A stretch of 49,794 nucleotides of DNA, taken from contig CAMFEP010000002.1 of NCBI GenBank assembly GCA_945949405.1, positions 1 to 49,794 of the forward strand, in the 5' to 3' direction. Source of the stretch: Kiritimatiellales bacterium. Its GTDB lineage: Bacteria > Verrucomicrobiota > Kiritimatiellia > UBA8416 > JAIOPI01. This document shows, piece by piece, positions 10,605 to 39,115 of this stretch; positions within the stretch are counted from its first letter, which is position 1, and every line of letters starts with the position of its first letter. Under the pieces are notes generated by a model. That model searched no databases. It saw only the letters and a program-made list of their open reading frames with translations, and had not been told where the DNA came from. The position numbers and the translations under genes were made by a program.

Positions 10605-10610
10605 GCCCCT

Positions 10611-18417: not shown

Positions 18418-18424
18418 CGGGCGC

Positions 18425-18470
18425 ACTACAAACGGTTTACCCAGTTTGTAGTCACGCCGTCAGGCGTGAT
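18425..18470. terminator. Two hairpins in the convergent exosortase / PEP-CTERM gap (no U-tract)
   Basis: ACTACAAAC (18425..18433) pairs with GTTTGTAGT (18445..18453). TCACGCC-GTCA-GGCGTGA (18452..18469) is the family E subtype. The position between two convergent stops suggests a terminator role, but neither strand has a T-run. Confidence 0.35.
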
Positions 18471-18487
18471 CCCGGTCTGGCGCAGCG

Positions 18488-19219
18488 CTATTTTGCGCTT
18501 TCTGCGCCTTTTTGCGGAAAATCCAATCGCCTGCGCCTCCGATTGAAAAAGGCGCCCAGCAACACCGAAGACAACAACGCCAGCTGCCCCGGCTCGGGCA
18601 CGAGCAACCGAAAATTGTCCAGGCCATAGATTTCCACACCCGCATCCTCACGGAAAATGTAAATGCCGATCCAGTCGATCGCCGCCAGATCGGCCAGAAA
18701 CTGCTCCTCGTCATCGTCGAATCCCGGCAACGGCCCCCAGGCATCCGAAAACGCCAGGGACACCTCGATCGTCTGCCACGACTGCGTCTGCGTGATCAGG
18801 CTCGTCACGTCATAGGACCAGACATTGCCATTCGTGGAGCCAAATTGCAGTTGTACGTTCTGCGGCAGCGCATTCGATGCCCAAAAGTCGAACCCCACGC
18901 ACATCCCAGGCGTCCAGTTGCCGGCAAAAAAATCGTTGGCGTCGGTGTAGATGATCTCCTCCCACTCGACCACGCCAATTTCCGGCTCGGTCGTGGGGGG
19001 AAAAACAATGGGCATCCAGCCGTTCGGATTGCCGCCCGTGGTGTCCCAGCCGAGCGACACGTCGTTATACATCGACGTCCAGGCATGGGGATGGTTGTCC
19101 CATGTGTGCTCATGCACAACGGCCGCCGCTGCGGAACGGACCATCACGCAAAGCAAGCCCAGCGCCAACAGCACCGGCGGCCTGCACGCAAACATGCGTA
19201 GGGTCTTCGCAAACATCAT
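18488..19219 (-). CDS. PEP-CTERM sorting-domain protein (jelly-roll-like ectodomain)
   Basis: The C-terminus VPEPGQLALLSSVLLGAFFNRRRRR gives a PEP motif, a TM helix and an Arg cluster (about 18527..18601). Signal-like N-terminus. ATG 19219 overlaps the upstream gene's TGA as ATGA; the ORF extends to 19231. Confidence 0.8.
   Translation of the reverse strand: MMFAKTLRMFACRPPVLLALGLLCVMVRSAAAAVVHEHTWDNHPHAWTSMYNDVSLGWDTTGGNPNGWMPIVFPPTTEPEIGVVEWEEIIYTDANDFFAGNWTPGMCVGFDFWASNALPQNVQLQFGSTNGNVWSYDVTSLITQTQSWQTIEVSLAFSDAWGPLPGFDDDEEQFLADLAAIDWIGIYIFREDAGVEIYGLDNFRLLVPEPGQLALLSSVLLGAFFNRRRRRLDFPQKGAESAK
18489..18535. repeat. Dispersed repeat family F (copy 2), forming the 3' end of the PEP-CTERM gene
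   Basis: TATTTTGCGCTTTCTGCGCCTTTTTGCGGAAAATCC resembles 7321..7366. On the minus strand it encodes ...RRLDFPQKGAESAK-stop. Confidence 0.55.
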
Positions 19220-20325
19220 GGCGGCGTCCATTCAAAATCCGCGCCGCCCCATTGGTTGGCCCGGTGGCGATAGTAATAGCCTGCGCCCGGCTCCAGCGCA
19301 AAATCCGCAAAGTCCGCCGCCTTGTTATCCCACCACCGGCCGTCCCACTTGGCGCCCACATGATCCATGAGCCAGTAGTACCCCTTCCACTCGTTGTTTT
19401 CCCAAACCCAAATCTGATCCCCGTTCTCATCGGCACGCCGGTGATCGCTCGTCTTGCCGCCGGATCCAACCACTGCAAAGCCAAGCGGATCCAATGGCGA
19501 AGGCGCAACGCGCTGCGCCACATCGGCACGGCGGTGCTGCAACGGACGGCTCGCGGGCAAACCGAACGGCGTTCCACGCTTCTCATCCAGCCGGATCGTC
19601 ACCGCCCCATAGGGCCGCGCATAGGTCCGCCCCCAAAAAGCGCCACGCACGCCCTGTTTCGCCGCGGCCGCGCCGCGCTGAATCCAAAATCCCTGCCCCG
19701 GCGCAATCGCATCTTCCGCCGCGGCATTCGCCTCCACATTCCACCACCGCGCCACGCCATCCGGCCCTTCCATCCAATACACCGCGCGCCACGCCCCCTC
19801 GCCGGTCGCAAGTTCCAACCGGTCCGCATCATTGGTGGAAGCCCCCGCGTGAAGCCCCAACCCGAGTTGCCGCCCCAGCAGCCGGTCGAGGCGATTTTCA
19901 GCGCCCAGCGCCACGGGCACGGAAACCAGATAGCGCTGCCCGGCCTCGCGCGGCTGCACGAACATTGCCCACTCGTCCGTGCTCTTCCACGCCGAGGCGC
20001 CGGTCTGCACCTGCACCCGGTAATAGCGCACCCCCGGCGCCGCCGCCGCACCGGCATCCACCCAGCTCAGCGTCGTGTCAAATTCACCAGTGACCACCGC
20101 CACCGGCCGCGCCTCCATGTCCGCTGCCGTGCTCACCAGAATCGTGGCCCGCACCGGTACACGAAAAGCAAGATCGAGCCGCACGTCCGCCCCGCCCGCC
20201 AGATCCAGCCCGGCAATCTGCACGGGCGGTTCCTGGGCATACTGCGTCTGCAGCGACACCACCTGGCATGCCGTACACGCCGCAAGGGCCAGCGCGCCGG
20301 ACAACATCACGATATATCGCTGCAC
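19216..20325 (-). CDS. Predicted lipoprotein of unknown function, paralogous to the C-terminal third of 21313..24078
   Basis: GTG start 1 nt after the upstream stop. MQRYIVMLSGALALAAC contains a lipobox (LAAC). Residues ~35-369 align by eye with residues ~569-921 of the 921-aa protein (EWAMF, WVWxNNEW, YYWLMDH, FALEPG, WGGA). Confidence 0.7.
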   Translation of the reverse strand: MQRYIVMLSGALALAACTACQVVSLQTQYAQEPPVQIAGLDLAGGADVRLDLAFRVPVRATILVSTAADMEARPVAVVTGEFDTTLSWVDAGAAAAPGVRYYRVQVQTGASAWKSTDEWAMFVQPREAGQRYLVSVPVALGAENRLDRLLGRQLGLGLHAGASTNDADRLELATGEGAWRAVYWMEGPDGVARWWNVEANAAAEDAIAPGQGFWIQRGAAAAKQGVRGAFWGRTYARPYGAVTIRLDEKRGTPFGLPASRPLQHRRADVAQRVAPSPLDPLGFAVVGSGGKTSDHRRADENGDQIWVWENNEWKGYYWLMDHVGAKWDGRWWDNKAADFADFALEPGAGYYYRHRANQWGGADFEWTPP

Positions 20326-20326
20326 C

Positions 20327-21295
20327 CTATGGCTCCTCTACTTCGATGATGTAAAAAGCCGCCGCCTCATTGGTCGCCACGGGAGCAAGATACTCGGTGA
20401 CCGGCGGCGTCGAGGGCACGCCCGCGTCCACCGGATTCAAGTCGCCGTCCACCAGATCCAGCGTGCGCCAGACCGCGTATGTGCGGTTGGAAATCGAATT
20501 CCAGCGCAGCACCACGCCCTCCACCGGTGCGCCCGGTGGCGTGGCGTCCCGCTCAATCTCCACGGTGAAGACCGAGTTCACATCGCGCGGATCGGTCCCC
20601 GCACGAAATTCCGCATAATTGATCATCCCGTCGCCGTCTTCATCCCCGCCCGCATCCGCCGGGTTGTCCGGGTTGAGCGCGTAGCCCGATTCCCAATCGT
20701 CAGGCATGCCGTCCGCGTCGCGATCGCCCGGCGGAATGGCGAGCCCCTGCAGTGTAAAATCGTCGAGGGCGTAATGCTGCTCGGCGGGATGGCCATGCCG
20801 GCGTACATAGACCGAGACGCGGCTGGCATGCAGCAGGTCGAAGGCGAATGCCTCCGCGCTGCCCTCCGGCCCCATGAACCAGCCGGGACCGTAGGCCATC
20901 GGAATCGCGTAGGGTTGCCACGCCCCCACCGTCGGTGCGGTGAGATTCAATTGCCAGATGTGGTTGTTCGTCCGCGAATGAAACACCACGCGCAGCGCGC
21001 TCGGATACATGGTGACCGCCTGGAACTGGAATTGCAGATTCGTGAGCAACACCGAACCAGGCAACTCAACCCAGGCACGATCCTCCACCAGCGCCGGGAC
21101 CGATTGCGCGTTGAACTTGAAATCCAGATACCCGCCCGGATTGCTCAACGACGCCCCCGCCGTATCATTCGACCACCCCGCCGTCCCCGGCCCCGCCCAC
21201 GACTCCATGGACTCCGTCGCCCGCGCCTGGTTCCCCAGCGCGACCAGCAACAGACCCGCGAGTACCGTAGCCCTGCGATGTGCAGCGTTTTTCAT
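20327..21295 (-). CDS. Secreted jelly-roll protein with TSP3-like Ca-binding linker and C-terminal beta-module
   Basis: Signal peptide MKNAAHRRATVLAGLLLVALGNQARA (ATG 21295; the ORF extends to a GTG at 21355). The ectodomain resembles that of the PEP-CTERM protein (LQFQF, ...YALDDFTLQG versus YGLDNFRLL). Then DRDADGMPDDWE...DEDGDGMINYAEFRAGTDP and a module ending FYIIEV. Confidence 0.7.
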   Translation of the reverse strand: MKNAAHRRATVLAGLLLVALGNQARATESMESWAGPGTAGWSNDTAGASLSNPGGYLDFKFNAQSVPALVEDRAWVELPGSVLLTNLQFQFQAVTMYPSALRVVFHSRTNNHIWQLNLTAPTVGAWQPYAIPMAYGPGWFMGPEGSAEAFAFDLLHASRVSVYVRRHGHPAEQHYALDDFTLQGLAIPPGDRDADGMPDDWESGYALNPDNPADAGGDEDGDGMINYAEFRAGTDPRDVNSVFTVEIERDATPPGAPVEGVVLRWNSISNRTYAVWRTLDLVDGDLNPVDAGVPSTPPVTEYLAPVATNEAAAFYIIEVEEP

Positions 21296-21312
21296 GCGTC
21301 GTCCCACAATAT

Positions 21313-24078
21313 TCAATTCTGTACCGGCGTAAAGCTGAAGTTCGCCCCGCCCCACAAATTAGTCACATGCTTGTAGTAATAGGCCTTGCCCGGTTCGAGC
21401 GCGAAGTTCGCGTAGTCTGGCACGAACCGGTCCCACCAGCGCAGGTTGCGCGTGCTGCTGATGTGATCCATGAGCCAGTAATACCGGTACCACTCGTTGT
21501 TGCCCCAGACCCAGAGCTCGTCACCTTTATAGAGCGCCGACGCCGTCGCCCCGTTGCTGATGCCGCCCGTGGCCAGCGCCTCGAAGCCCAGTGGCGACGC
21601 CGTGGTGAGCGTTCCCTGATTGCGCTGCCAGCGCGCCTTCGGCAATGGCCAGCCCATTACATTCCAGTTGCCGTCGTTTGTGGTCAGCGCGATCGAGGCC
21701 ACCGTGCCATCCGTCCAGGTCCTGCCCGTGAACACCGTGTTGGCGCGCAGCACCACCCCCGTGCCTCGCACCACCCAGAAGCCCAGGCCCACCGGCACCG
21801 TGAACGTCGCCGGCGCCGCCAGGTCCGCGTCATACCAGAAGCGCGTGCCGCTGCCGTTGGTCACGAAGTAGAACTGCTTCCACGTCTTGTCCGCCTGCAA
21901 ATACTCCACACGATCGGCCTGCGAAAGCGTCGCATCCGGATGCAGCCCGCGCCCCAGCTCCAGCCCCAGGCGGTCGCTGATGTTGTTCGAACTGCTCGTG
22001 CCGTAGTTGATCGGCACGCAGATCAGGAAGGAGTTGGTCTTGGATCGCGCCTGCGCGAACATCGCCCACTCCTCCGTGTTCGTATAGGCCCCGCCCGCAT
22101 AGGTCACCGATACGTTGTAAAAACGCGAACTGTAGAGCGCCGCGGCATTCGTATCCGTCCAGGAGTTCACGCCCGTCAGCCCGTCGAGTACGGCCGTCTG
22201 TGCCGTGCGCGCGTTGGTGATGTCGTTCGCCGCCACGGTGACGCGGTAATTGCGCACCGGCAGATCGCCCACCGTGCCAAAGGTCGTCGGGCCGTTGTTC
22301 GTGCCGCCGCCCCACCAGATCTGCACGTTTGAATTGGTCTCATAGTTGAGGTCGACATTGGCAATCTTCATCATCGAGTTGCTGCTGTTGGGATCGGTTC
22401 CCGCCATGAACTCCCGCGTGTTGGAAACGCCGTCGCCATCCGCATCCGCATTGGCATTGTTGCCCACCCCGCCCAGATACTGGATCTCCCAGCGGTCCGA
22501 AAGTCCGTTGCCGTCCCGGTCCACCGCCACGGGCATCGTCGAGGCAATGCCGAAACTGTCCACATACAATGCCCGGTTCGTGGTCAAATGCGTGGCGAGC
22601 GTGACGACATTCGTGGCGTATGGCGCCCAGGCCGTACCGTACACATTGCTCGCGAAGGTTCGGTAAAAATACCGCTGGCCGTGGGTCAGGTTCGTTAGCG
22701 TCGTGGTCAACAGCCCCCACCGGTTGGTGCCCAGCGCCCGGTGATAGGTCCAGGTTTGCTCATTAGTCCCGCCATCGTACAACCCGTAGTGCATGATGAT
22801 GGTCGGGTAGGGATAACCCCCGCGCACATGCGCCTTCACCGTGGCCTGGGTGGAGGACACGCTCACGTAGCCGCTATACACGCTCGTCGAGGGTGCATTC
22901 GTCGCCGGCACCGGCACCGCGCTCAATAGAAGGTCGTCCAGGTAATAGGAATCGCCCGTGTTGTTGGCCGCGCTTTCATCGAAGCGCACCCGCACCGCCA
23001 CCTGCGTCTGCGTCAGCCCCAGCGTGACCTCATAGGGATTGGGCGTGACCGTCGCCGGATTAAGCAGGTTTGTCGCCCCAAACTCCACGTCCGCATTGCC
23101 GAAACCATCCACCAGCTTGACGCTGCCCGCGCCCGCCCAGCTCCCCCCGTTGTCGTATGACAGATCCAGGTGGAAGTCGTCGTCGATTTCCGGATTGTCT
23201 GCCGCAAACGCCAACTCCAGCTCTACCGCTTCCACATCCCCCACCACGTTGGTCAGAAGATTCGTCAGCACGACGTTGTCGAAAATCACGCTGGGATCCG
23301 CGGTTCCCGCCACCGAACCCGTCAGCGTCAACGACCGGGCGCCCGTCCATTGCTTGCCTGTGGAACGCGTAATGGACCCCGCACCCGCATTCGTCGCGTG
23401 GTTCCAGTTGTCCGAGTGCGCCCCATCGAATCCGTGCGCCCGCAGCATCCGCCGCCCATCGTCCACCGTCACCGTGCCGTTGAGCACCACGTTGTCCAGG
23501 CGCCAGGTCCCCGACAGACTCAAGGCGTTGGTCGCATACACCCGGACGTACACCGTGCCTGCCAGATCCAGCGGATACAGATCGGCCGCGCTCTCGCTGT
23601 GCCATGTGTTGGAACCGCCAGCCGCCGCCGCGCCCATGGTATAGTAGGTCACGTTGTCCGGACTGTAGCGCACGACCCAGTAGGAGGGCCCCTCCGTCGA
23701 CAACTGATGATCAAAATCCAGACTGTCGAGATCGAGCAGGAACCCCGCCCCCACCGTCACCGAGAACGCAAAGTAGCCCCCCAGCGTCGCGTTCGTCGGC
23801 CACTGCGTCGAGCGGAAAGACTGCCCCGGATTGCCTACGAGGAAGTTCGTCGTCCCGCCCCCCACGTAAACCAAATTCGACGCCGTCACCAGCGCGTATA
23901 CGTTGGTCGGCACCAGGTTCGTGGCGTCAAAGTCGTAGCGCACCAGCTCGGTGGCCCGCGCGAACTGCGCCGCGCACAGCATGGCTATGGCCGCCAAAAG
24001 TGCACACACGCGCCGGCCCCTTCCACTCCCACTGGAGGGCGAGGCTGTGCCGAGCCGCATGTTTAACCCTGGCTTCAT
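21313..24078 (-). CDS. Large secreted multidomain protein (jelly-roll modules, FN3-like, TSP3-like linker, unknown C-terminal domain)
   Basis: 921 aa. Signal-like RRVCALLAAIAMLCAAQFARA. Modules end TWRLDNVVLNG and SYYLDDLLLS. DRDGNGLSDRWE...DADGDGVSNTREFMAGTDP linker. The C-terminal ~350 aa are paralogous to 19216..20325. ATG 24078 lies 1 nt after the upstream stop. Confidence 0.75.
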   Translation of the reverse strand: MKPGLNMRLGTASPSSGSGRGRRVCALLAAIAMLCAAQFARATELVRYDFDATNLVPTNVYALVTASNLVYVGGGTTNFLVGNPGQSFRSTQWPTNATLGGYFAFSVTVGAGFLLDLDSLDFDHQLSTEGPSYWVVRYSPDNVTYYTMGAAAAGGSNTWHSESAADLYPLDLAGTVYVRVYATNALSLSGTWRLDNVVLNGTVTVDDGRRMLRAHGFDGAHSDNWNHATNAGAGSITRSTGKQWTGARSLTLTGSVAGTADPSVIFDNVVLTNLLTNVVGDVEAVELELAFAADNPEIDDDFHLDLSYDNGGSWAGAGSVKLVDGFGNADVEFGATNLLNPATVTPNPYEVTLGLTQTQVAVRVRFDESAANNTGDSYYLDDLLLSAVPVPATNAPSTSVYSGYVSVSSTQATVKAHVRGGYPYPTIIMHYGLYDGGTNEQTWTYHRALGTNRWGLLTTTLTNLTHGQRYFYRTFASNVYGTAWAPYATNVVTLATHLTTNRALYVDSFGIASTMPVAVDRDGNGLSDRWEIQYLGGVGNNANADADGDGVSNTREFMAGTDPNSSNSMMKIANVDLNYETNSNVQIWWGGGTNNGPTTFGTVGDLPVRNYRVTVAANDITNARTAQTAVLDGLTGVNSWTDTNAAALYSSRFYNVSVTYAGGAYTNTEEWAMFAQARSKTNSFLICVPINYGTSSSNNISDRLGLELGRGLHPDATLSQADRVEYLQADKTWKQFYFVTNGSGTRFWYDADLAAPATFTVPVGLGFWVVRGTGVVLRANTVFTGRTWTDGTVASIALTTNDGNWNVMGWPLPKARWQRNQGTLTTASPLGFEALATGGISNGATASALYKGDELWVWGNNEWYRYYWLMDHISSTRNLRWWDRFVPDYANFALEPGKAYYYKHVTNLWGGANFSFTPVQN
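24032..24058. repeat. Dispersed repeat family C (copy 2), inside the 5' end of the 921-aa gene
   Basis: CTGGAGGGCGAGGCTGTGCCGAGCCGC differs from 656..682 by one mismatch. On the minus strand it encodes RLGTASPSS of the N-terminal region. Confidence 0.75.
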
Positions 24079-24079
24079 G

Positions 24080-24679
24080 TCAATTCTTCACCCGGAACGC
24101 TTGAAAATAGGAGTTCGTCGAAATCGACGCGAACGGCACATTGGTGATCACCGACGTCAGCAGCCGGTTGGGCACGTCGTCCGCCGTGAACAGGGACCAC
24201 CGGCTGGCCTTGTAATCCAGATTCACCGTGAAGCGCTGCCAGGTGTTGGACGGCACCGTGGTACTCAACGTCAGCCAGGTATCGTTGCTCAACACACGCA
24301 GCGCCCCCGCGGTATCGATATAAAAGGCCGCCGCCACGCTGCCCGTGATCACCGGCGGCGTGTTGTTCGTGGAATACGGCTGCCGCGCGTAAAAATCAAT
24401 CCACACGTTGGTGATCGTCGCATCGTTGAATTCGTTCCACATCACGGCATTCGTCGCCACAATCGCGGCCTTGGCCCCGGCGAACTTGACCGCCGCCTGC
24501 ACCTGCACATCCTGGTTGCGCAGCGTCTCCCATTCATTGAGGGAAATCAGCGCGCCGGAGGACAGATTGTCGAAGCTTTCCATGAACGGTACGTCGCCGG
24601 CGCGCACGGCACCGGCGCCCAGCGCCAGCGCCAGCAGCGCCGCCGCCAGCCCTCGAAGTCTGTATCCCGTTTCCTTCAT
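24080..24679 (-). CDS. Secreted hypothetical protein (LamG/ConA-like jelly roll suspected)
   Basis: Signal peptide MKETGYRLRGLAAALLALALGAGAVRA. ATG 24679 has GGGAG 7 nt upstream and lies 16 nt after the giant gene's stop; the ORF extends to 24718. The fold assignment rests only on the beta-rich pattern (WQRFTVNLDY..RWSLF). Confidence 0.6.
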   Translation of the reverse strand: MKETGYRLRGLAAALLALALGAGAVRAGDVPFMESFDNLSSGALISLNEWETLRNQDVQVQAAVKFAGAKAAIVATNAVMWNEFNDATITNVWIDFYARQPYSTNNTPPVITGSVAAAFYIDTAGALRVLSNDTWLTLSTTVPSNTWQRFTVNLDYKASRWSLFTADDVPNRLLTSVITNVPFASISTNSYFQAFRVKN

Positions 24680-24695
24680 CTTGCGCTCCCGCGTC

Positions 24696-27600
24696 CTATT
24701 CGAACAAATAGAAGACATTGCCCGCCGGATTCACCGCCGTGACCGTCACGTTCACCGTGATCAAATCGATGTTGTTGAATTGGTCATACACCATCACGAT
24801 GAAATAATCGCTTCCCGAGAAGTAGCGCGCCGGCGCGTAGCTCACCACCATCGTGCCGCCCGTACCGCTGGCCGCAGCACTCCCGTAGAACGGAGCCGCC
24901 AGCACCGACCACTGGATCACATCCCCGTACGGCGTGTCCGCATCCGTGGCATGCAGCGTCAGGCTGAATGGCACAGGGCTCCCGTTTTCGGACATCGTCA
25001 CATTGGCGTTGGTGCCTTCGGTGATCACGGGCGCAAAGGTCACCGTGGCCTGCGTGCCCGTGGTAAATGACGAAGTCAGATAATTGGCCCCGCCCGCGGC
25101 GCCATTGTATTCGAACAACGCGAACGAATAGGTCGTCCCCGGATACAACCCGGTTACGGTCACGTTGGTCCCGGACGCATTATACACCGCATACACACCG
25201 GTGGCGATCGCCGCCCCGTTGCTGTGCACGGAGTTCGCCGTGTAGCCAACGCCGTCCACGGGCAGGTTGGTCACGCTGCCGCCCACCCGCGCCACCAGCA
25301 GCCGGTTGGCCCCGTTGCCGCTGTTCCACGACACCGTCATCTGCGCGTTCGACACCGCCGTGAAGATCAGGTTGCTCGACGCCAGCGTCGGCTCGCTCTC
25401 CAGCACTGCGTGGCCCACCACCCGGAAGTCGTACGGATTCTGCTGCGTGTCATTGTTGGCGATGCTCACCGTGGTCGTGTAAACCCCCACCACGTCCGGC
25501 GCAAATTGCAACGTGAAGGTCGTCGCCGTCAGCCCGTTCAGGTTGCTCGACGCCGGCTGACTGGTGATGGTGAAGTTCGTCGCCCCGCTCAACGATAGCG
25601 CCGGATTGTTGGTCAGGCTCAAGGCATAGGTGGCGTTGACGTTGGTGATGGTGAAGGTGTGGCTGAAGCTCGTGTTGGCTACGATGTTGCTAAACAGCGT
25701 GCCGTCCGCGGTGGTGGGCGTCGTGTCCCCGTCAGCAATCGCCGCGCCGTTGGTCCCCAGCACGGACATCACCGGGCCGAACACCAGATCCACCTGGTGC
25801 GCCGAAACCACCACGCGACCAGTCACGCTGCCCGACCAGTTCGTGGTGGAGAAGGCCCCGTTGATCGAATGCGTACCACCCTGCGCATTGGTGATGATCA
25901 TGTAGCTGCCGGCCGCCACCGCGCCAATATTGCTCACGGTCAGCGTGCCGTTCAGGTTCACGTCATCGCCCACGTTGATCGCGGCGATGGCCCCGTTCCA
26001 CAGCGTTACCTGCAACTCACCATTGTTTTGCGAGGAGAACGCCAGGTCGTCCCCAACCGTCACGCTGGGCGCCGCGCCCAACACATGAAACACGCCGCGC
26101 CCCGTGGCCGCGTCCGTGTCGCCCAGTTCGATGTCGCCATTGTCGCTGCCCGCCCCGATCGTGATCGTGCCGTTCGTGATTGCATAGCGCCCGTTGCGGT
26201 TGCCCGTGGTGCCCTGCCCGCCCAGCACCAGCGGTTGCCCCGCGGCAATTTGCACCGCACCACCGCTCTGATTGACGATGCCCGTGGCGCCAAAACCCGC
26301 GCCCACGTTGAAATCGTTGCCCAGCGTGATCAAGCCACCCGAGAGATTCAGCGTGGAAATGCCATTCGTGGCGAAGTTGATCATGTCCACACCCACCGTG
26401 CCGCTGGACACGTTGAATGTCGCCGCGTAGTCCACGTCCAGGTCGCCCGTGCCGATCGTGTCCAACCGCCCGCCCGCCACGGTCAGCGTCGACCCGCCGC
26501 CACCCGTGAAATCACCCACCGTCACCACGCCCGCCGTCACCGCGCCGCCCGAAATCGTCAGCGCGCCCAAGCCGGCCCGCCCGACTACCAGGTCGCCCAC
26601 CGCCGTCAGCCGCCCGCTGCTCACCGTCACCGTGCCCGTCGACCCGCCGGCGTTGCCGATGTTCACATTCGTGGCCGTGCCCAGTCCGCCACTGACCGTC
26701 AGCGTGCCGCGTGCCGCCGACGCATCGCCGATCTCAATCGAATCCCCCACCGTCAACACGCCGCCCGAAAGCGTCACCGCATTGTTCGCGCCGTTATTGG
26801 CCGCGTCGCCAATCACCAAATCCCGCCCATTGCTAACAGTCACGGTGGCCACCCCGGAAATCGCCATCGTGCCCAGGCCCGCCACACCCACAAATAAATG
26901 CTCCGTGCCACCTGCACCGCCGGCATTCAACTGGCCCGCCGTCGCGCTCAAGGTGCCCGTGGAGCCCGCCACGTTGCCGATGTTCAGCGCATCCGTCACC
27001 GTCAGCACGCCGCCACTCAAGGCCACCGCGCCGCTGGCCCCGGAGTTGTTGCCCACGGTCAGATCCCGTGAGGCCAACGCTGTCCCACCCGCCACCGTGA
27101 GCGTGCTGCCCGCGTCTTCCGCGCCGGCGCTGCCCGCCGCCACGATCCAATCGCCAATGGAGGTCACCGCCGCCGTGCCCGTGACCGTCATCAAGCCCAC
27201 GCCCGCGGAGCCGATCGTCGTCGCGCCCGTGATCGTCAGCGCCCCGCCGCTGGCCCAGTACGTGCCGCGATCGCCCGAACTCTCGCCCAGCGTGAACAGG
27301 TTCTTGACGCCCAGCACACCGCCGGTCTGCTCCACCGTCCCCGTGCCGTTGTCGCTGCCGCCATCGAAGCCATTGTCACCCACGAACAGGTTCGAAACCA
27401 CTTCACCCGCCAGGGTCACCAGCGCCGTGTACCCGCCGTTGACGAAACTCACATCAATCGCCGCCGGTTCGATATCCGCCGTCCAGTTCGTGGCATTGCT
27501 CCAGTCGCGGTCCGCCCCGCCGCCCGCATCCCATTCGAAGGTCGGCACGCCAAAGGTAATGGTGTTCGTCGTCGTCAGCGCATCGTTGGCGCGATCCCCG

Positions 27601-29771: not shown

Positions 29772-32700
29772 CCCGTGGCCGCCACGCTGTAACTCACCAG
29801 GCTGGTATAGCTCATCGTCCCGGCGTTGATGTTGGACACCGTGAAGGTCTGCGTCTGCGTCGCCGGATTTTGCCCCAGGGTCGCCGTAAAGGTCAGATTC
29901 GTTGGATAGAGGTCCAGCACCGGCCCAGTCATGTTCAACAGTTCAAACCAGTTCGTGGCCACCCGCACTTCGTCGAAGTAGGACTCGCCCACCGTATTGC
30001 CGAGGTCGCTGGAACCCGCGTGCACGCGCACCCCGTTGATCGTGACGATGTCGCCCGCCGCCAGCGTGTCCGTGGCGTCCCATGTGGCCGGCTCGGCGGT
30101 GGGCACAGTCTGCGTCCGGTCGTAGGCCTTGGTCGTCAGCACGCGCGTGCTGAAATCGTATTTGAGGACCACCACGTACACCTTGCCCGTGTCCCCCGGC
30201 GCCCCGTAGGGCCAGATTTCATACGTCGGACTCGACGCCGTCTGCCCGCCGACCCCATCCAATCCCAGCGTACGGTTGGCCGCGCTGCCGATCTTGCCCG
30301 CGAACACCTTTTCCGTGGTGTTGGACATCAGCGAAATGCCGGACCATTTGCTCGCGCCCTGGAATTGATAGGCCAGCATGCACGCCGCATAAATCTTTCC
30401 CGTCGAAATCACGGAGAACGACCGTTCCGCCCGGTTCGTGCTGCCGTTGCCCGGATCGGAGAAATGCAACCGGTTCGCCGCCGTCGCGGGATAATTCCCG
30501 ATCGTCGGGAAGTACGGCACACCCGTCGCGCTGTAATTCGTCTCGACGAGCTTTGTGCCCTGCGCCCCCGTCACCCACCCCGCGCTCCACCCCTGCCCGC
30601 CCGCCAGCCCGCTCAAGGCCACCCCGTTCGTGTACGCAAAGGCCTCCACGATCTCCCCGGTGCGATACGCCACCGTCACCGCGCTGGCGCCGACTTCATT
30701 GGTCGAATAGTAATCGTTGTTGACCGCATAGAATTTGCAGAAATTCGTGCGGCTCGGCGCCACCACGTGCTCCAGCGTCGCGCCACTGCCCTTGTAAATC
30801 ACCGTGGCCCCGTCGATCGTCGCGCCCGCGCTATACGCCGCGCCCTGCGTCGGATCGGTCGTGATGCTGTTGGTCTTGGCCAGGATCAACGTGTCCAGCC
30901 CCGTGATCTTGGTCCACGCCAGCCGCACCATCTCCTTGCCGTCCACCGTCGCTGTTGGCACCGCGGGCGGTGGAATGTTCGTGACCGTCAGCGTGAAGAC
31001 CACCGTCTGGTTGCCGTTGGTCTGGTTGCCCGTGATCGTGTTCGTGGCGTGGAACGTGCCCGTCGCCCCCACCACGCTCACCGTCACCGTGTGCGTCAAA
31101 AATGTGCCGCCCGTCAGCGGGCTCGGCGCCGGGGCGATGCTCGCCCAACCCGATGCGCCGCTGCCGTATGTCACCGTGTTCGTGTAGGTCATCGTCCCGA
31201 CATTCGTGTTGGTCACGCCGAAGGTCTGCGTCGCGGGCGCGGAACCGAGCATCGTCGTGAAAGACCGGTTGGGACCGGCGGAAAGATTCGGGAAGCCCGA
31301 CGGCGTGAACACCAGGTCGATCGTCGTCGCCGTGTTCGTGACCACCCAACTGCCGCCGTTCAGGTCGTGCTGGAACCCGTTCGTGTCGATCATGAACTTG
31401 TCCGCCGAAAATCCGCTGATACTCGTCGCCGTCGCGATGCTCCGCGTATAGATCGTGGTATTCGTGAAGTTCGCCGCCGCGCCCGCGGCGCCGCCGTTGA
31501 GCGAGGTGAGCGCGACCGTGAACGTTTGCCCCGTCGTCGCGGACACCGTCAGCGCACCCGTCACGTTCAACTTGTCCCAGCCCGGATCGGCGCCGTACGT
31601 CCCGGCAAAGTCGTTGATCTCCCACACATACACGCCGTTCGTGCCCCAATCCGTCGCGCCCGCGTTCATCGTACCCGGGCTCGATCCCGGATTAATCGCG
31701 CCGCCGCCATACACGTTCATCGTGCCGCTCACGCCCGTGCCCTTGAACGTCCCCGCGCCCACCACCATACCCACATCATTGCTCACGCTCGTGCCCGTGA
31801 AGGTCAGCGTGCCCGTGCCGGTTTTGGTGATCGTCACCGTGCCCGAGGTCTTGTCCACCGCGCCGCCCACGGAGAAGGTGATGCCACTGTCGATTTGGAA
31901 CGCCGGGCTGACGCCGGCAAAGGTCATGCCCATCGAGGCGTGCGTCATCGACGCGCCCACCCGCAGCGTGCTGTTGTTCGTGGTGAAGTTGATCTTGTCG
32001 GGATAGGATGTGGCCCGCCCCAGCGCGCCGGTGTGGTTGAGGTACAGCGTGCCGTCATACACGACCAACTTGTAGCCACTGTGCGTGTTGTCCCCGGAAA
32101 TCTGCAGCGTGCCGGTCGACGGTCCGGTCATGTAAACTTCCGCCGCCCCGGTGGACGACGTCACCACGCCGCTGATCGTCGCGTTGCCGCTGAAGCGCGC
32201 CTGCTGGTTGCCGCTGTTGTCCAGCCGCAGCCGCCCCGTCAAAGCCAGCGTGCTGCCCGAGGTCGCCGTCAGGTAAAGCGTGTTGTTGAGATTGACGTTG
32301 CCCGAGAGCGTCGTCGTACCGCTCGCCGCCGTGGATGTGATCGTGCGCGTGGCCGCGCCGGGGTCCGTGTTCGCCTGGATCGTACTGCCCACATCCACCC
32401 CGCTCGCCGCCAGGTCGAGCGTGGCATTGCCACCACTCGTGCCGTTGCCAATGAACACCGCGCTGCCGTTGGCGATGTCGCCGCCGCTGGCCACGGAAAG
32501 TGTCCCCAGATCGATTTCCGTGTTGCCCGTATAACTGTGCGCCGCACCCAGTGAAACCGTGCCCGCGCCCGCCTTGACCAGCTTGCCGCCGCCGCTGACG
32601 ATGCCGTTCAGGTTGATCGTCCCCGTCGTCGTCGCCGTCAGGTTGCTGCCATTGTTGTTGATCGCGCCGCTGATCGTCAGCGTGCCGCCGGCATTTGCCG

Positions 32701-35700
32701 CCACCGTCAGCGCATTGCTCATCGTCACCGGGCCCGAGAAGGTCGCCGTGCCCGTGGTGTTGTTCGCGGCGATGGTCTTGGTCCCGCTGCTGCCCGCGCG
32801 CACCGTGATGGCATTCGTCACCGTCACGCCCCCCGCACCGATCGCCAGCGTCACCGCCGCCGAACCCGTCGTGTCTCCCAGCCGGATACCGGCGCTGCTG
32901 AAATTGGAACCCTGGTTGGCATTGATCTGCAAGGTGCCCGCGTTGGCAATCGTGACGCCGCTATAGGTGTTCGTGCCGTTAAAAATCAGCGTCCCCGAGT
33001 TGCTGTTGGTGAAGTTCACCGGCACCGTGTCGCCGGCATTGTTGTTCGCGACCGCCCCGTTGATCGTCACGTTGCCCGTGCCGCCCAATGTCTGCCCGCG
33101 CCCCGTGGTGCTGTTGTCGTCGGACAGGTATGCGCTTCCATTGATCGTCGTCGTCCCCGTGTTGTTCACGGTCAACGTGCGGCTGCCGCCGGAGAACGTG
33201 AAGGTGCCGGGGCCGTTGAACGTGAAGGCATTGGTCCCGCCCACCGTCGTGCTGGCCGTTACCACCGTGGTGTTGGAAATGGAGCGCGTCGCGTCGGTGG
33301 ATTGAATCGTGCCGCCGTTGAGCGTCAGCGTCCCCGTGCCGAGCGCGTTGTCATTGCCGATGGAAAGCGTGCCCGCGTTCAACTGCGCGCCGCCCGTCCA
33401 GGTCCCCGCCGCCGCGCCCAGCACCAGCGTCCCCGCCCCCGCCTTCGTCAACTGCCGGCTCCCGATCTCGCTCACCGCCCCATTCAAAGTCAGTGTGTTC
33501 GCCGTCACCGTAATCGTCCGGTTGCCGCCGCTGATCGACGTGCCGCCGCTGATCCTCAGCGGATTGCTGCCCACAAAGGTCGGGCTGCCGTTGGTTAGCG
33601 CGAAGACGTTCGGAATCGTGATCGTCCCGCCGCTTGTGTTGTCGATCGAATTGTTCGCGCCGTTGATGAACAACGCCCCCGTGCCCAGCGCGTTGGCATG
33701 GTTGATGTTGATCTGCCCCGCGCTGCTGCCCATGGTCGTGCCGCCGCCAAAACTGCTGTTGCCGGAAAGCGTCAACGTGCCCGCGCCGAACTTCACCAGC
33801 GCGATCGTCCCCCCGCCACTCACGATCGTGCCCGAATACGACCCGCCCGTGCCGCCGGAACCGACAATCAGCAGACTCGTGCCCGTGGAGTTCGTGATCG
33901 CCCCCCCCGACCCATTCAGCGCATCGCAGGCATTCGTTTTGCCGTTGAGATCCAGCCGCCCGCTGTTCACGGTCAGCGCCGAGTTGCTGTAAACCTGGTC
34001 GCGGCCCGTGCCCGTCAATTGCACCAGCGCCCCGCCCACCGTCAGCCCCGAATCCAACGCGTGCACGGTGCTGCTGCTGGTCTTGCCGAGCTGCACGGTC
34101 CCCGCCGTCGCCGACATCGCCAGGTTGGTGTTGTTGTCCGCGCCGCTGAAGCTCACCGTGCCGGCGCCGTTGAGCGTCGCCGTCCGCACGCCGTTGCTTC
34201 CGTAAAACGCGCTTGTGAACGCCAGCGTCCCGCCGCTCAAGAGCGCCGCCACAGTAACATCGTTGCTCAAGACCACCGGCCCGCTGAAGGTCGCCGTGCC
34301 GCTGCTGTTCGTGCCGTCAATCGTCTTCGTGCCGCTGCTGCCCGATCGCACCAGCACTGCATTCGTGATCGCCACCCCGCCCACGCCGATGGATAGCGTC
34401 GCCGCGTCGCTCCCCGTCGTTTCCCCTAGGCGTATCTCGCCCGAAAAATTGGCCACCTGGTTCGTGTTGAACCGCAAACTGCCACCCACCACGAAGGTGT
34501 TCCCGTTGTACGAATTGGTGCCGCTCAGGACCAGCGTCCCCGTGCCCTTTTTGACGAAGCTGCCCGGACTCGCGCCGGAAATGATCCCCGAAAAAGTCGT
34601 CGACGTGTTGTCCTGTCCCGCGATCAGCTGCGCCGTGCCCATCGTGATGCTGCCGCCGCCGGCGATGGAGCCGACCGTCTCCGCGTTGTTGGTCATGTCA
34701 AAGGTCGCACCCGTCACCACCGTCAGCGCCGACCCGTCGTCAATCAGGTTCGCCGCGTTGATGCGCAGCGTGCTGCTGTTGCTCACCACCGTCGCACCCG
34801 TGTAAGTCTTGCCCACAAGACTGTAGCGCGTCACGCCGCCACCGGTCACATAGACCGTATCATTGCCGCTCAAGGTATTCGTGTAATCCACCAGTCCGCC
34901 CGACGTCGCGGTTAGGGTCACGGACTCGTCGTCCGCGTCGCTGTCGCGCGTGATCGTGCCGCCAAACGTGTTCGTGCCGCTGGTGTTGTTGCCGCCGATC
35001 GTGCGGTTGCCCCCGCTGCCGGGATTGATGACCAGCGCACGGTTGACCGTCGTGCCGCCATCCGTGTCCGCGATCAAAAATTCCGCCGCCGTGCCGGTGG
35101 CCGACCCGAGCCCCACATACACCGTGCCGCCGGCAATGCTGCCACCCTGCGCGATATGCAGCCCGCCGGCATTGATCTCGGTGTTCGCCGAGTAGCTGTT
35201 CGCGCCGCTGAAACGCACCGTGCCCGCACCGCGCTTCATCACCGTGTCGTCGCCGTTGATGTCCCCCGAAAACGCCACCGTGCCTCCGGAGCCAACGTAC
35301 AGGGTGACGGTCTTGTTGTTGCTGCCGGTTCGGACGATCGTGCCGCTGAAGGTGTTCGTGCCGCTCGTGTTCAGCCCGCCCAACTCGCGATTCTGCTCCG
35401 TGCCATCGCCATCGTTGATGTTGATCGTCCGGCTGAAGGTCAGCCCGCCGTCGCTGTCGTTGAGGAAAAACTTGCAGTCATCCGCGGTTGCGCCGCCGTT
35501 GCCGACAAAAATGGACGAGGAAGCCGAAATGTCGCCGCTTGCGCCAATCCAGATTTCGCCAATATCGATTTCCGTGTTGCCGCTGTACGTGTTCGCGGAG
35601 TTGAACACGATGATGTTGTTCTGCTTGATCTTGAAGGCCTTGCTGGAGCCGCTGATCGCGCCATTGAAGGTGAGCGTCTTGCTGTTGCTGCCATACACAT

Positions 35701-36190
35701 GGATCTCATTGACGCCGCTGCCGTTCATGTTGACGGTGCTGTTGAAGGTGATATTGCCGTTGATGGGATTGATCTCACCCCGCGCCGTACCCGCGGTCGC
35801 CTCGAAATCCACCGCAAAGTCGATCGTTCCCGCGCCGGTGCTGTTGTTTTCAATCTTGGCCTGCGTGCCGCCGTTATCGAAGAAGTCCACGGTGTTTCCA
35901 CGCAAAATGAAGTCGCTGGAACTATTAAAATTGATCCCGTTCATGGAATACGAACCGTTGTTGTTCGTATTGATCAGATTGGCGCTGCCGGAGAAGGTCA
36001 GGGTGCCATAGGTGGGCAGCGTGTCGCTGCTCCAGTTGGCGGCGGTGGTCCAGAAGTTATCCCCGCCCCCGCCATCCCACGTATTCCCGGCGAAAACGAC
36101 GCTGGAGGTGGCGAGAAAAGCGGCGATCAGGAGGCTCCGGGGGAGACAGACACACACCGACCGCAAAAAAGCCAGAAAACTGCGGTGCAT
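29612..36190 (-). CDS. Autotransporter-associated beta-strand repeat (PATR) giant surface protein, upstream segment with signal peptide
   Basis: 2192-aa ORF. ATG 36190 with a signal-like N-terminus (LLIAAFLATSSVVFAGNTWDGGGGDNFW). Many PATR units (GAGTLVLSGTNSYNGNT, GAGTVSLGAAHSYTGNTEI, GAGTVRFSGANSYSANTEI). An internal duplication of about 100 aa. A ConA/LamG-like module (GWSAGW...FDEVRVATNW). Confidence 0.85.
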   Translation of the reverse strand: MHRSFLAFLRSVCVCLPRSLLIAAFLATSSVVFAGNTWDGGGGDNFWTTAANWSSDTLPTYGTLTFSGSANLINTNNNGSYSMNGINFNSSSDFILRGNTVDFFDNGGTQAKIENNSTGAGTIDFAVDFEATAGTARGEINPINGNITFNSTVNMNGSGVNEIHVYGSNSKTLTFNGAISGSSKAFKIKQNNIIVFNSANTYSGNTEIDIGEIWIGASGDISASSSIFVGNGGATADDCKFFLNDSDGGLTFSRTININDGDGTEQNRELGGLNTSGTNTFSGTIVRTGSNNKTVTLYVGSGGTVAFSGDINGDDTVMKRGAGTVRFSGANSYSANTEINAGGLHIAQGGSIAGGTVYVGLGSATGTAAEFLIADTDGGTTVNRALVINPGSGGNRTIGGNNTSGTNTFGGTITRDSDADDESVTLTATSGGLVDYTNTLSGNDTVYVTGGGVTRYSLVGKTYTGATVVSNSSTLRINAANLIDDGSALTVVTGATFDMTNNAETVGSIAGGGSITMGTAQLIAGQDNTSTTFSGIISGASPGSFVKKGTGTLVLSGTNSYNGNTFVVGGSLRFNTNQVANFSGEIRLGETTGSDAATLSIGVGGVAITNAVLVRSGSSGTKTIDGTNSSGTATFSGPVVLSNDVTVAALLSGGTLAFTSAFYGSNGVRTATLNGAGTVSFSGADNNTNLAMSATAGTVQLGKTSSSTVHALDSGLTVGGALVQLTGTGRDQVYSNSALTVNSGRLDLNGKTNACDALNGSGGAITNSTGTSLLIVGSGGTGGSYSGTIVSGGGTIALVKFGAGTLTLSGNSSFGGGTTMGSSAGQININHANALGTGALFINGANNSIDNTSGGTITIPNVFALTNGSPTFVGSNPLRISGGTSISGGNRTITVTANTLTLNGAVSEIGSRQLTKAGAGTLVLGAAAGTWTGGAQLNAGTLSIGNDNALGTGTLTLNGGTIQSTDATRSISNTTVVTASTTVGGTNAFTFNGPGTFTFSGGSRTLTVNNTGTTTINGSAYLSDDNSTTGRGQTLGGTGNVTINGAVANNNAGDTVPVNFTNSNSGTLIFNGTNTYSGVTIANAGTLQINANQGSNFSSAGIRLGDTTGSAAVTLAIGAGGVTVTNAITVRAGSSGTKTIAANNTTGTATFSGPVTMSNALTVAANAGGTLTISGAINNNGSNLTATTTGTINLNGIVSGGGKLVKAGAGTVSLGAAHSYTGNTEIDLGTLSVASGGDIANGSAVFIGNGTSGGNATLDLAASGVDVGSTIQANTDPGAATRTITSTAASGTTTLSGNVNLNNTLYLTATSGSTLALTGRLRLDNSGNQQARFSGNATISGVVTSSTGAAEVYMTGPSTGTLQISGDNTHSGYKLVVYDGTLYLNHTGALGRATSYPDKINFTTNNSTLRVGASMTHASMGMTFAGVSPAFQIDSGITFSVGGAVDKTSGTVTITKTGTGTLTFTGTSVSNDVGMVVGAGTFKGTGVSGTMNVYGGGAINPGSSPGTMNAGATDWGTNGVYVWEINDFAGTYGADPGWDKLNVTGALTVSATTGQTFTVALTSLNGGAAGAAANFTNTTIYTRSIATATSISGFSADKFMIDTNGFQHDLNGGSWVVTNTATTIDLVFTPSGFPNLSAGPNRSFTTMLGSAPATQTFGVTNTNVGTMTYTNTVTYGSGASGWASIAPAPSPLTGGTFLTHTVTVSVVGATGTFHATNTITGNQTNGNQTVVFTLTVTNIPPPAVPTATVDGKEMVRLAWTKITGLDTLILAKTNSITTDPTQGAAYSAGATIDGATVIYKGSGATLEHVVAPSRTNFCKFYAVNNDYYSTNEVGASAVTVAYRTGEIVEAFAYTNGVALSGLAGGQGWSAGWVTGAQGTKLVETNYSATGVPYFPTIGNYPATAANRLHFSDPGNGSTNRAERSFSVISTGKIYAACMLAYQFQGASKWSGISLMSNTTEKVFAGKIGSAANRTLGLDGVGGQTASSPTYEIWPYGAPGDTGKVYVVVLKYDFSTRVLTTKAYDRTQTVPTAEPATWDATDTLAAGDIVTINGVRVHAGSSDLGNTVGESYFDEVRVATNWFELLNMTGPVLDLYPTNLTFTATLGQNPATQTQTFTVSNINAGTMSYTSLVSYSVAATGWLAVAPATGLVGAASGVLSTGTGWRRPITWRAAPTRRPTRCMRARRGLRRWW

Positions 36191-36235: not shown

Positions 36236-36264
36236 AGTATAGAGAGACGCCCCGAAAAGGTCAA
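36236..36264 (-). promoter_or_regulatory. Candidate sigma70-type promoter of the giant-protein operon
   Basis: Minus strand has TTGACC (36264..36259), an exact 17-nt spacer and TATACT (36241..36236), about 45 nt upstream of ATG 36190, within a locally A/T-rich stretch. Confidence 0.5.
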
Positions 36265-36288
36265 GAAATCATCAAAAACTCCCAATAC

Positions 36289-36310
36289 CATACTATTTTA
36301 GTATAGTATG
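36289..36310. promoter_or_regulatory. A/T-rich palindrome upstream of the operon promoter (candidate operator)
   Basis: CATACTAT-TTTAGT-ATAGTATG has 8-bp inverted arms. It also reads ATACTA-TTT-TAGTAT. It lies about 25 nt upstream of the putative -35. Confidence 0.35.
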
Positions 36311-38224: not shown

Positions 38225-39054
38225 ACCGTCCGCGCCAGCGCCAGCACCACGCCGTCATCCACGCGCCGCAGGCGGTGCATATACGCCACCCCGCCCTCCC
38301 CGGACGCGTCGATCGTCTCCACCGTCACGTTCTCCTCCGGCCCCAACTCCGCCAAAAACTGAATATCCAGTTCCTGCAGGCGACTCCCGTCCGCAAGCGC
38401 CGGCGGCAGTGTGTCGAGGCACCACGCGATGTATCGCACGTGATTGACGTGCTGATTGAAGTCGAGGTCGCTGCCCCCGGCGCGCCAACTCTGGCTGGCG
38501 ACCGGCGTCGCCCCCGCTGGCCACACCAGGTTCACCTCCGGCAACTCAACCAGACGCGTCCGCCGCGCAAGCGCCACCTCGCGCACAAATCCCGGCAACC
38601 CCACCGGACGGCGCCGCGCGCTGTTCAACACCATCCAGCTCGTCGTGGCCGCCCCGATCTGCCCGCCGGCGCTGTCATAAATGCCGAATTCGCGAAAGGC
38701 GCAGACCCGGTTCAGCTCCGAGGGCCAGGTCTCGATCGTCACGGTGTTATGCCACATGGGCGTGCGCACCAGCACCAGCCGCAATCGGCAGAGCACCCAC
38801 GTCAGCCCTTGCGCCTCCAGCGCCGCAATGCCAAACCCCAGCGCCCGCGCATGGTTGCTGGCGGCGTTTTGTAGATAATTGCAGAGCGCGGGCACGGTCA
38901 ATTCGCGCCGCCCGTTCACCTCGTAGGCGCGAACATCATAGCGCTCCACCCCAATCGCGGGACTGTCCCCGGCTTCGGCAGGGGGCGGTAAATCTGCGTG
39001 TTCCAACACAATTTCTCCGGTTGCGTATTGACGAATTGCGTGGCTTGTTGCCAA
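38200..39054 (-). CDS. Acyl-ACP thioesterase (FatA/FatB family)
   Basis: YEVNGRRELTVPALCNYLQNAASNHA and DLDFNQHVNHVRYIAWCLD match the acyl-ACP thioesterase double hot-dog signature. There is no early ATG: the start is TTG 39054 or a downstream GTG (39009 or 38949). Confidence 0.78.
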   Translation of the reverse strand: MATSHAIRQYATGEIVLEHADLPPPAEAGDSPAIGVERYDVRAYEVNGRRELTVPALCNYLQNAASNHARALGFGIAALEAQGLTWVLCRLRLVLVRTPMWHNTVTIETWPSELNRVCAFREFGIYDSAGGQIGAATTSWMVLNSARRRPVGLPGFVREVALARRTRLVELPEVNLVWPAGATPVASQSWRAGGSDLDFNQHVNHVRYIAWCLDTLPPALADGSRLQELDIQFLAELGPEENVTVETIDASGEGGVAYMHRLRRVDDGVVLALARTVWAAGAMA

Positions 39055-39094
39055 ACTGCCGGGCGATTATAAAGGACGTAGCGCGGGCGAACAA
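39045..39094. promoter_or_regulatory. Compact divergent promoter region (thioesterase/FAAL versus desaturase operon)
   Basis: The ATTATAAA core (39066..39073) reads TATAAA on the plus strand (TTGTTG 17 nt upstream) and a perfect TATAAT on the minus strand (TTGTTC 17 nt upstream). Pattern match only. Confidence 0.3.
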
Positions 39095-39115
39095 CCAGTT
39101 TACAAACACGAAATC

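Follow-up and report, generated by a model that had tools for sequence, protein, structure and literature searches.

Gene content of the locus

The window analysed here is a stretch of 49,794 nucleotides, apparently a complete contig in NCBI and ENA, from a Kiritimatiellales bacterium (contig CAMFEP010000002.1, assembly GCA_945949405.1), and its subject is a compact set of six genes for secreted proteins, g1–g6, which lies tail-to-tail with a gene for an exosortase fused to a tetratricopeptide repeat (TPR) region. A six-frame listing of open reading frames (ORFs), combined with an analysis of G–C content at third codon positions (GC3), located seven minus-strand ORFs at 18488–36190, all with coding-type GC3 (0.75–0.86) and all at the positions assigned to them in the initial annotation of this DNA. 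The seven ORFs correspond to six genes, as the two large ones are a single gene split by a frame change. The coding features, with coordinates in the window, are as follows:

24696..36190, minus strand: g1, giant secreted PATR beta-helix protein, annotated as two ORFs (29612–36190 and 24696–29771)
24080..24679, minus strand: g2, secreted protein of about 200 aa from an unnamed family, a module inside the giant protein in other lineages
21313..24078, minus strand: g3, 921 aa, with a signal peptide, modules g3A and g3B, an FN3-like domain, a TSP3-like linker, an immunoglobulin (Ig)-like domain and domX
20327..21295, minus strand: g4, 322 aa, with a signal peptide, a jelly roll resembling carbohydrate-binding module (CBM) family 11, a TSP3-like linker and a C-terminal Ig-like domain
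19216..20325, minus strand: g5, predicted lipoprotein of 369 aa, with lipobox LALAAC/TAC-Q, an Ig-like domain (35–115) and domX (about 119–369)
18488..19219, minus strand: g6, PEP-CTERM protein of about 243 aa, with a signal peptide, a CBM11-like jelly roll, YGLDNFRLLV-PEP, a transmembrane (TM) helix and RRRRR
14239..18417, plus strand: exosortase-TPR fusion, 1,392 aa, convergent with the operon, an arrangement that is conserved

Here, domX is our name for the all-beta C-terminal domain of about 250 aa found in g3 and g5. The genes are separated by 16 nt (g1/g2), 1 nt (g2/g3), 17 nt (g3/g4) and 1 nt (g4/g5), and g5 and g6 share an ATGA overlap; these spacings are exactly those reported initially, provided that the same start codons are used.

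Conservation of the cassette and gene fusions

Custom hidden Markov models built for each module were used to annotate 31 fetched loci (designated L001 and onwards). In about 12 independent loci from metagenome-assembled genomes (MAGs) or metagenomes, the genes were found tail-to-tail with an exosortase-TPR gene of about 1,390 aa, in a recurring order: a giant gene carrying the g2 module, TSP3, Ig-like domain and domX; a gene for jelly roll, TSP3 and Ig-like domain; sometimes a lipoprotein gene with Ig-like domain and domX; a gene for jelly roll and PEP-CTERM; and the convergent exosortase-TPR gene. The full cassette is present in the window, L001, L004/5, L010, L011, L015/L029, L025, L026, L031 and the contig carrying P0245. 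Thus, the gene order is conserved and homologs of the genes are not scattered, in keeping with the initial reading of the locus as one system. The conserved core consists of three genes, namely a giant with a TSP3-Ig-like-domX end, a g4-type gene of about 330 aa and a g6-type gene of about 240 aa. Across the cassette loci, the identity of the exosortase falls to 37% and the genes beyond it change completely, while the pairing of cassette and exosortase persists; the cassette therefore appears to be genetically coupled to the exosortase-TPR fusion enzyme of this lineage. In L027, the g6-type gene alone is kept beside the exosortase. Among metagenome loci retrieved via domX alone, 15 of 16 have a jelly-roll gene directly beside the domX gene.

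The relationship between g1, g2 and g3 is seen in L003, where one protein of 2,858 aa unites a segment resembling g1b with the g2 module (43% identity) and with the C-terminal half of g3 (50% identity over 421 aa). As in L003, these last two pieces lie within a giant polypeptide in L008, L010, L011, L013, L017, L025 and L029, and the g2 module of other lineages is situated directly before TSP3-Ig-domX. L001 and a distant Kiritimatiellia MAG, L026, also have separate genes for a giant protein and for proteins of about 200 and about 900 aa. In view of the fusions seen in relatives, g1, g2 and g3 are read as pieces of what is one polypeptide elsewhere and would constitute a split fibre in the window; these fusions are the strongest evidence that the three products act together. 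The giant partners, examples of which lie at L029 16043–24170 and L010 2–10885, range from 1,714 to 9,613 aa, and the L010 giant contains a repeat of about 435 aa matching a piece of the g3 N-terminal region.

The cassette is previously undescribed; a search of the accessible literature returned no description of it or of the exosortase-TPR fusion.

The giant protein g1, g2 and g3

The two ORFs of g1 overlap by 160 nt, and its orthologue in L001 is a single ORF of 3,711 aa. Comparison by tblastn placed the frame switch between window positions 29711 and 29693, where the gap is 17 nt versus 18 nt in the L001 orthologue. The sequence at the switch is ACGGGCACGGGGTGGCG, and the GGGG run at 29702–29705 is one G short relative to the orthologue. 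When one G is restored there, an uninterrupted ORF of 3,831 aa results, with six PATR matches (84.6 bits), in agreement with the PATR protein of roughly 3,800 aa proposed initially. The lesion is either an assembly error or a very recent frameshift, and g1 is one gene in both cases.

Apart from a signal sequence and the six PATR repeats (PF12951/TIGR02601), g1 contains two LamG-like modules that are an internal duplication (E-value, 8e-18), a second beta-helix region bearing the T5SS/PEP-CTERM-associated repeat (TIGR04393), and choice-of-anchor D, FN3 and tandem-95 domains. Neither a beta-barrel translocator nor a C-terminal anchor was found in g1 using Pfam and NCBIfam models. The same two collections gave no family match for g2. 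The two modules of g3, each of about 170 aa, end in WRLDNVVL and YYLDDLLL, and are followed by the TSP3-like linker at 517–568 and domX at about 669–921. When g2, g3A, g3B, g3C, g4N, the LamG-like modules and the middle of g1 were searched in isolation, Pfam hits at E ≤ 1 amounted to noise (GH131_N, E-value 0.025).

The g4/g6 jelly roll and the sorting signal of g6

The g6 protein exceeds the curated thresholds of both PEP-CTERM models (PF07589, 22.8 bits with a cut-off of 20.7; TIGR02595, 25.3 bits with a cut-off of 16), and no other protein of the cassette matches them, so that the exosortase signal is indeed confined to the last protein, as was initially proposed. The PEP motif is invariant in all 26 aligned members of the g6 family, each of which also has a TM helix and a basic tail, and the N-terminal hydrophobic segment, which ends AAA|VV in g6, is by inspection conserved across the family as well. 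The g6 protein is the predicted exosortase substrate. An identical g6 protein is also present on a second contig of 24,075 bp (Logan/ENA).

An AlphaFold2 model of g6 built from 26 sequences (pLDDT, 86.5) is a beta-jelly roll, the last strand of which, YGLDNFRLLV, leads straight into PEP. Foldseek analysis against the Protein Data Bank (PDB) revealed that its best matches are CBM11 structures (2lro, 6r31 and 1v0a; E-value, 2e-8; probability, 1.00; TM-score, 0.66), followed by CBM30, CBM22, CBM4-2, the N-domains of GH50 agarases, and NDUFAF1/CIA30. At the sequence level, the jelly roll of g4 and g6 has no CBM match in Pfam or NCBIfam, and the g6-family profile found nothing below an E-value of 0.4 among PDB sequences. 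The jelly-roll module of g4 is about 165 aa long, and is followed by the TSP3-like linker at residues 211–262 of the 342-aa ORF. Alignment of the N-terminal profiles of eight g4 orthologues and 26 g6-family proteins gave an hhalign probability of 99.8% (E-value, 5.7e-28; 151 columns), and the two modules are therefore, by profile comparison, the same domain. The jelly roll that had been attributed to g4 is thus upheld by homology to g6, whose own fold comes from the AlphaFold2 model.

The predicted lipoprotein g5 and domX

A lipobox is found in g5 alone, which is consistent with the single lipobox reported initially, and its cysteine is kept in eight of the ten relatives in which the N-terminus is present; g5 is accordingly annotated as a predicted lipoprotein. 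It is confined to the clade of the window (L001, L003, L004/5, L007 and L008). Only 11 word-sharing relatives were found among 5.8 billion clusters, the best being from a Lentisphaerae MAG of the Lac Pavin/Lake Fargette sampling (56% identity). A scan of 185,579 species genomes returned one relative; the back-translated patterns used are specific to the g5 clade, and hence this count is no measure of rarity.

Residues 612–918 of g3 align with residues 59–368 of g5 at 34% identity over 314 aa (E-value, 1e-49), which substantiates the common C-terminal domain that had been noticed in these proteins. The g5 protein is thus a clade-specific predicted lipoprotein that duplicates the Ig-like domain and domX. 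The structural model of g5 (pLDDT, 80.7; pTM, 0.79) is all-beta and is composed of an Ig-like domain (35–115), a beta-sandwich (119–265) and a Trp-rich subdomain (300–369). Using Foldseek, the g5/domX model gave generic FN3/Ig matches alone in PDB, with TM-scores below 0.25, and nothing meaningful in BFVD. Likewise, the domX profile had no match below an E-value of 0.4 among PDB sequences, and no Pfam or NCBIfam model matches this domain. In a full HMMER scan of 1.84 billion representatives, the Ig-like+domX profile recovered 415 clusters, of which 79 had E-values below 1e-30. Wherever the match was full-length, domX formed the extreme C-terminus, in proteins of up to 7,867 aa, and the sampled domX proteins bear PATR, Laminin_G_3, TSP3, DUF2341 or Kelch domains.

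Modules and motifs common to several genes

Neighbouring genes truly have three modules in common: the jelly roll (g4/g6), the TSP3 linker with its Ig-like domain (g3/g4/g5), and domX (g3/g5). The Ig-like module that follows the TSP3 linker is common to g3, g4 and g5 (hhalign, 97%). The TSP3_bac model (PF18884) scores 24.1 bits in g3 (E-value, 3e-5) and 16.8 bits in g4 (E-value, 6e-3), both below the gathering score of 25, and 27.7–52.3 bits in the orthologous giant proteins. DxDxDG loops are visible in the TSP3-like linkers, and these sub-threshold TSP3 matches are the basis on which the loops may be regarded as calcium-binding.

The motif [YW]xxD[DN]hx[VILM] occurs four times (g3 192, g3 378, g4 195 and g6 202) versus 0.11 expected by shuffling; each occurrence marks the end of a module, and none lies in g1, g2 or g5. 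A common origin of g2, the jelly roll, g3A, g3B and the LamG-like module was considered and rejected, with hhalign probabilities of 10% or lower, the g3A and g3B alignments being shallow (depth of 3 and 6, respectively). Of the shared motif-ended modules described initially, the motif itself is therefore non-random, and homology of the whole module holds for g4 and g6 only, the others being unrelated at the profile level. The end-of-module motif does not establish homology among all of the jelly-roll-like modules.

Elsewhere in the window, at 4131–5765 on the plus strand, a secreted right-handed beta-helix protein (pectate-lyase/NosD-like) with a choice-of-anchor Q domain ends in the same TSP3-like + Ig-like module as g4 and g3, and is otherwise unrelated to them. 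In this lineage, the module may serve generally for surface attachment at the C-terminus.

The exosortase-TPR fusion

The EpsH-type domain of the exosortase occupies residues 31–274 (PF09721, 81 bits; cut-off, 25.7) and carries C191 (TWCSGMR), R236 (NILRIA) and H257 (LHDTAG). An extra TM segment (310–328) is followed by about 1,060 aa of TPR-like helix, the last 150 or so residues of which resemble PrsT (TIGR02917; E-value, 1e-16; 59.8 bits versus a cut-off of 312.2), with the match spanning the last 145 profile positions alone. The PrsT of XrtA systems exists as a protein of its own, a TPR lipoprotein (PMC1569441). All of the named Xrt subfamilies (XrtA, XrtD, XrtJ, XrtT, XrtV, XrtW and others) scored far below the NCBIfam cut-offs, the best values being 55.6 bits for XrtD (cut-off, 400) and 51.6 bits for XrtA (208), with 54.5 bits for the generic 8TM_EpsH model (105.55).

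The exosortase-TPR family comprises at least 173 clusters. Among the matches listed, nearly all members are 1,230–1,460 aa long (two are shorter fragments) and share 35–64% identity; they come from Lentisphaerae, Kiritimatiellae and Verrucomicrobia MAGs and are named "archaeosortase/exosortase family protein" in the source records. In 378 kb of non-redundant related DNA, a sample biased toward cassette neighbourhoods, the only PEP-CTERM tails detected with a permissive pattern are those of the g6 family. This suggests that the exosortase and g6 may form a dedicated enzyme–substrate pair.

Transcription signals

Features of the intergenic DNA include the following:

36236..36264, minus strand: sigma-70-like promoter candidate (10/12 match), TTGACC-17-TATACT, which precedes the g1 start codon (ATG) by 46 nt
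18418..18487, no strand assigned: convergent spacer of 70 nt between g6 and the exosortase gene, with a long nested hairpin (−36.7 kcal/mol, z = −3.0)

The promoter that had been placed only upstream of the first gene is a real match at that position; its uniqueness did not hold, as an equally good match lies inside g1 at 25207–25179. Since the number of such matches in the region (four observed versus 3.6 expected by shuffling) equals chance, the candidate at 36236–36264 counts as weak evidence. A near-perfect palindrome, ATACCATACTA-N3-TAGTATAGTAT, is located at 36285–36309, about 20 nt upstream of the candidate −35 box of g1, and could be an operator site. A terminator-like hairpin is found 3' of the upstream fatty-acyl-AMP ligase gene. 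The hairpin of the convergent spacer has no clear U tract and is a probable bidirectional transcription stop. Co-transcription of g1–g6 is plausible from the spacing alone; the exosortase gene is convergent, and therefore lies outside the transcript of the operon.

Proposed function of the cassette and alternative explanations

With moderate confidence, we interpret the locus as the six-gene form of a conserved exosortase-coupled surface-adhesin cassette of Lentisphaerae/Kiritimatiellae-type bacteria of the Planctomycetes–Verrucomicrobia–Chlamydiae (PVC) group. All six products would cross the inner membrane by Sec, as N-terminal hydrophobic signal sequences are visible in them. By analogy with PEP-CTERM/exosortase and sortase systems, the neighbouring exosortase would then cleave g6 at PEP and fix it to the envelope, and g5, with its lipobox, would probably be lipid-anchored and serve as a second anchor. 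The fibre (g1, g2 and g3) might be held on these anchors via contacts between the shared modules, with g4 as a bridge: jelly roll to jelly roll (g6/g4), TSP3/Ig (g4/g3) and domX to domX (g3/g5). The lectin-like modules (CBM-like and LamG-like) would give the structure an adhesive outer face that binds glycans or particles. The multi-component, calcium-dependent surface structure suggested initially is thus supported insofar as the components are functionally linked, by gene order, fusions and shared modules; calcium dependence and physical assembly are inferred only.

A bolder form of this proposal, which we regard as possible and put forward tentatively, is that domX is a new class of C-terminal docking domain that would mount giant non-covalent adhesins (up to about 9,600 aa) on a two-protein socket, composed of a jelly-roll/TSP3 adaptor and a jelly-roll anchor, with the anchor being the sole substrate of a specialised exosortase-TPR enzyme.

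Several observations weigh against the adhesin-cassette interpretation. The shared modules could reflect duplication and shuffling only, the TSP3 matches in g3 and g4 remain under the Pfam gathering score, the promoter evidence is at chance level, and the cassette lacks a gene for any component of export across the outer membrane. As g1 is frameshifted in this assembly, either the assembly is wrong or the fibre may be non-functional here. In addition, L028 and L030 have an exosortase-TPR homologue with no cassette beside it, and the exosortase of L012 lies about 8 kb away, for which reason the exosortase could be a general enzyme with substrates elsewhere.

The first alternative, which we consider unlikely, is that the operon encodes co-regulated but independent secreted glycan-binding proteins, i.e., a polysaccharide or particle capture locus with no joint structure, in which g6 alone is tethered via the exosortase. 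The CBM-type fold of g6 and g4, the LamG-like duplication in g1 and the Laminin_G_3 domains of domX-bearing relatives all fit such a locus. However, the presence of g2 and of the C-terminal half of g3 as parts of the giant protein in many lineages argues that at least g1, g2 and g3 act as one entity, the association of a jelly-roll gene with domX is almost obligatory, and the cassette contains no glycoside hydrolase or transporter genes.

Somewhat less probable still is that the adjacency of the exosortase is lineage synteny with no functional meaning, the enzyme being a housekeeping exosortase and g6 one of many substrates encoded elsewhere. PVC bacteria can indeed have many PEP-CTERM proteins, 65 in Verrucomicrobium and 23 in Akkermansia (PMC1569441, PMC4960237). 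The wide distribution of the exosortase-TPR family, the lack of a cassette beside it in L028 and L030, and the adjoining pyruvate dehydrogenase (PDH) genes, which are syntenic in L001, L004 and L027 as well, point in the same direction. Nevertheless, cassette and exosortase stay paired at identities as low as 37%, with a complete turnover of the genes on the far side of the exosortase, g6 alone stays attached in L027, and the related DNA sampled contains no PEP-CTERM tail outside the g6 family.

Finally, a decaying operon, with a real frameshift that would make g1 a pseudogene and the locus a relic, is improbable: one base is missing relative to the orthologue, and an exact look-up in a collection of 15 billion proteins did not find the repaired 3,831-aa protein and did find the truncated 2,192-aa product, solely from this contig, but both halves of g1 keep coding-type GC3 (0.84–0.86) with no further stops, the lesion lies in a homopolymer, as is typical of MAG assembly errors, and all of the downstream genes are intact.

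Comparison with known systems

The locus works like a PEP-CTERM/exosortase system (EpsH/XrtA; Haft et al. 2006, PMC1569441) and falls within the core definition of that system. The two have in common a substrate with a signal peptide and the PEP, TM helix and basic cluster arrangement (g6), as well as an adjoining membrane protein of the EpsH family that carries the Cys, Arg and His motifs, and a PrsT-like TPR component. By contrast, the enzyme of the cassette lies outside the named Xrt subfamilies, and its TPR part is fused to it (about 1,390 aa) with no separate lipoprotein. Exopolysaccharide (EPS) genes and PrsK/PrsR are also missing from the neighbourhood: the window has no EPS genes, and a single Wzy_C gene lies upstream in L031. 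The cassette apparently has one substrate family, versus a median of eight substrates per genome in classical systems, and this substrate travels with a giant non-PEP-CTERM protein ending in an uncatalogued domain.

Pilus-specific (class C) sortase operons of Gram-positive bacteria combine a dedicated sorting enzyme with the structural genes of one fibre, which is anchored by a small basal subunit. The cassette resembles this layout in its sorting enzyme beside structural genes and its putative small anchor, whereas the enzyme family and the envelope differ, and covalent polymerisation is unlikely because only one cassette protein carries a sorting signal. With the giant adhesins of the autotransporter/PATR type (type V secretion system, T5SS), the cassette shares the PATR and TIGR04393 repeats of g1, which predict a long beta-helix. 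A type V autotransporter was rejected, as no beta-barrel translocator was found in g1–g6 with Pfam and NCBIfam models, which detected PATR repeats of the passenger type only. The giant proteins of relatives end in domX instead. The cellulosome provides an analogy only, in its large modular extracellular proteins, Asp-rich calcium-binding linkers, CBM-fold modules, and small anchoring proteins with shared interaction modules; no cohesin or dockerin sequence match was found in the cassette, whose putative interaction modules are domX, the jelly roll and TSP3-Ig. The pilus-like cluster Amuc_1098–1102 of Akkermansia, a member of the same PVC superphylum, was considered on account of a weak match of g3 and g4 to NF042425 (Amuc_1099 family). 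An Akkermansia-type pilus was rejected: the match (19–20 bits versus a cut-off of 50) covers the TSP3 loop alone. PilQ- and PilM-like genes are absent.

How exosortases act on PEP-CTERM proteins, to which acceptor the proteins are joined and how they reach the surface are still poorly understood. Classical PEP-CTERM systems are hard to study, as their substrates are numerous, heterogeneous and encoded at scattered sites in the genome. The cassette offers a compact alternative, with an unclassified exosortase that has a built-in PrsT-like TPR arm, apparently one small substrate family, a g6 globular domain that ends one residue before PEP, and a defined giant cargo travelling with g6. If the docking-domain proposal is true, the cassette would display one fibre on one anchor by means of one enzyme. 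It would then be a Gram-negative counterpart of a pilus base with its own sortase, and a tractable system in which to ask to what exosortases join their substrates. The present analysis defines at least three protein families that are not yet catalogued, namely domX, the jelly roll of g6 and g4, and the g2 module; they mark surface adhesins of uncultured Lentisphaerae and Kiritimatiellae, bacteria that are relevant to polysaccharide and particle degradation.

Neighbouring genes

The initial annotation had the operon flanked by the exosortase-TPR gene and an EF-hand gene. The former does adjoin it; the EF-hand gene is separated from the operon by the exosortase gene, and a fatty-acyl-AMP ligase gene borders the operon on its other side. 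The EF-hand protein (13634–14128, minus strand) has sub-threshold Pfam matches and is XopAW-like, and its gene overlaps an antisense ORF of 180 aa (13700–14242). It was rejected as a part of the system for lack of conservation, the corresponding position in L001 being occupied by hemerythrin and Rrf2 genes. On the far side of the exosortase gene, positions 7409–13328 are occupied by genes of the PDH complex. The set is E1-E2-E3 in L004/5 and L027, as it is in the window; in L001, E1-E2 genes were found where the fetched stretch stops. Such lineage synteny could make neighbouring genes look more closely linked than they are.

Directly upstream of the operon, at 36467–47041, lies a lipid/polyketide-type cluster with genes for the fatty-acyl-AMP ligase, an acyl-ACP thioesterase, two fatty-acid desaturases, a ketosynthase with a linker of the polyketide synthase (PKS) type, a methyltransferase, an FAD monooxygenase and a type III PKS. 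Its product may be an alkylresorcinol-like or other specialised lipid.

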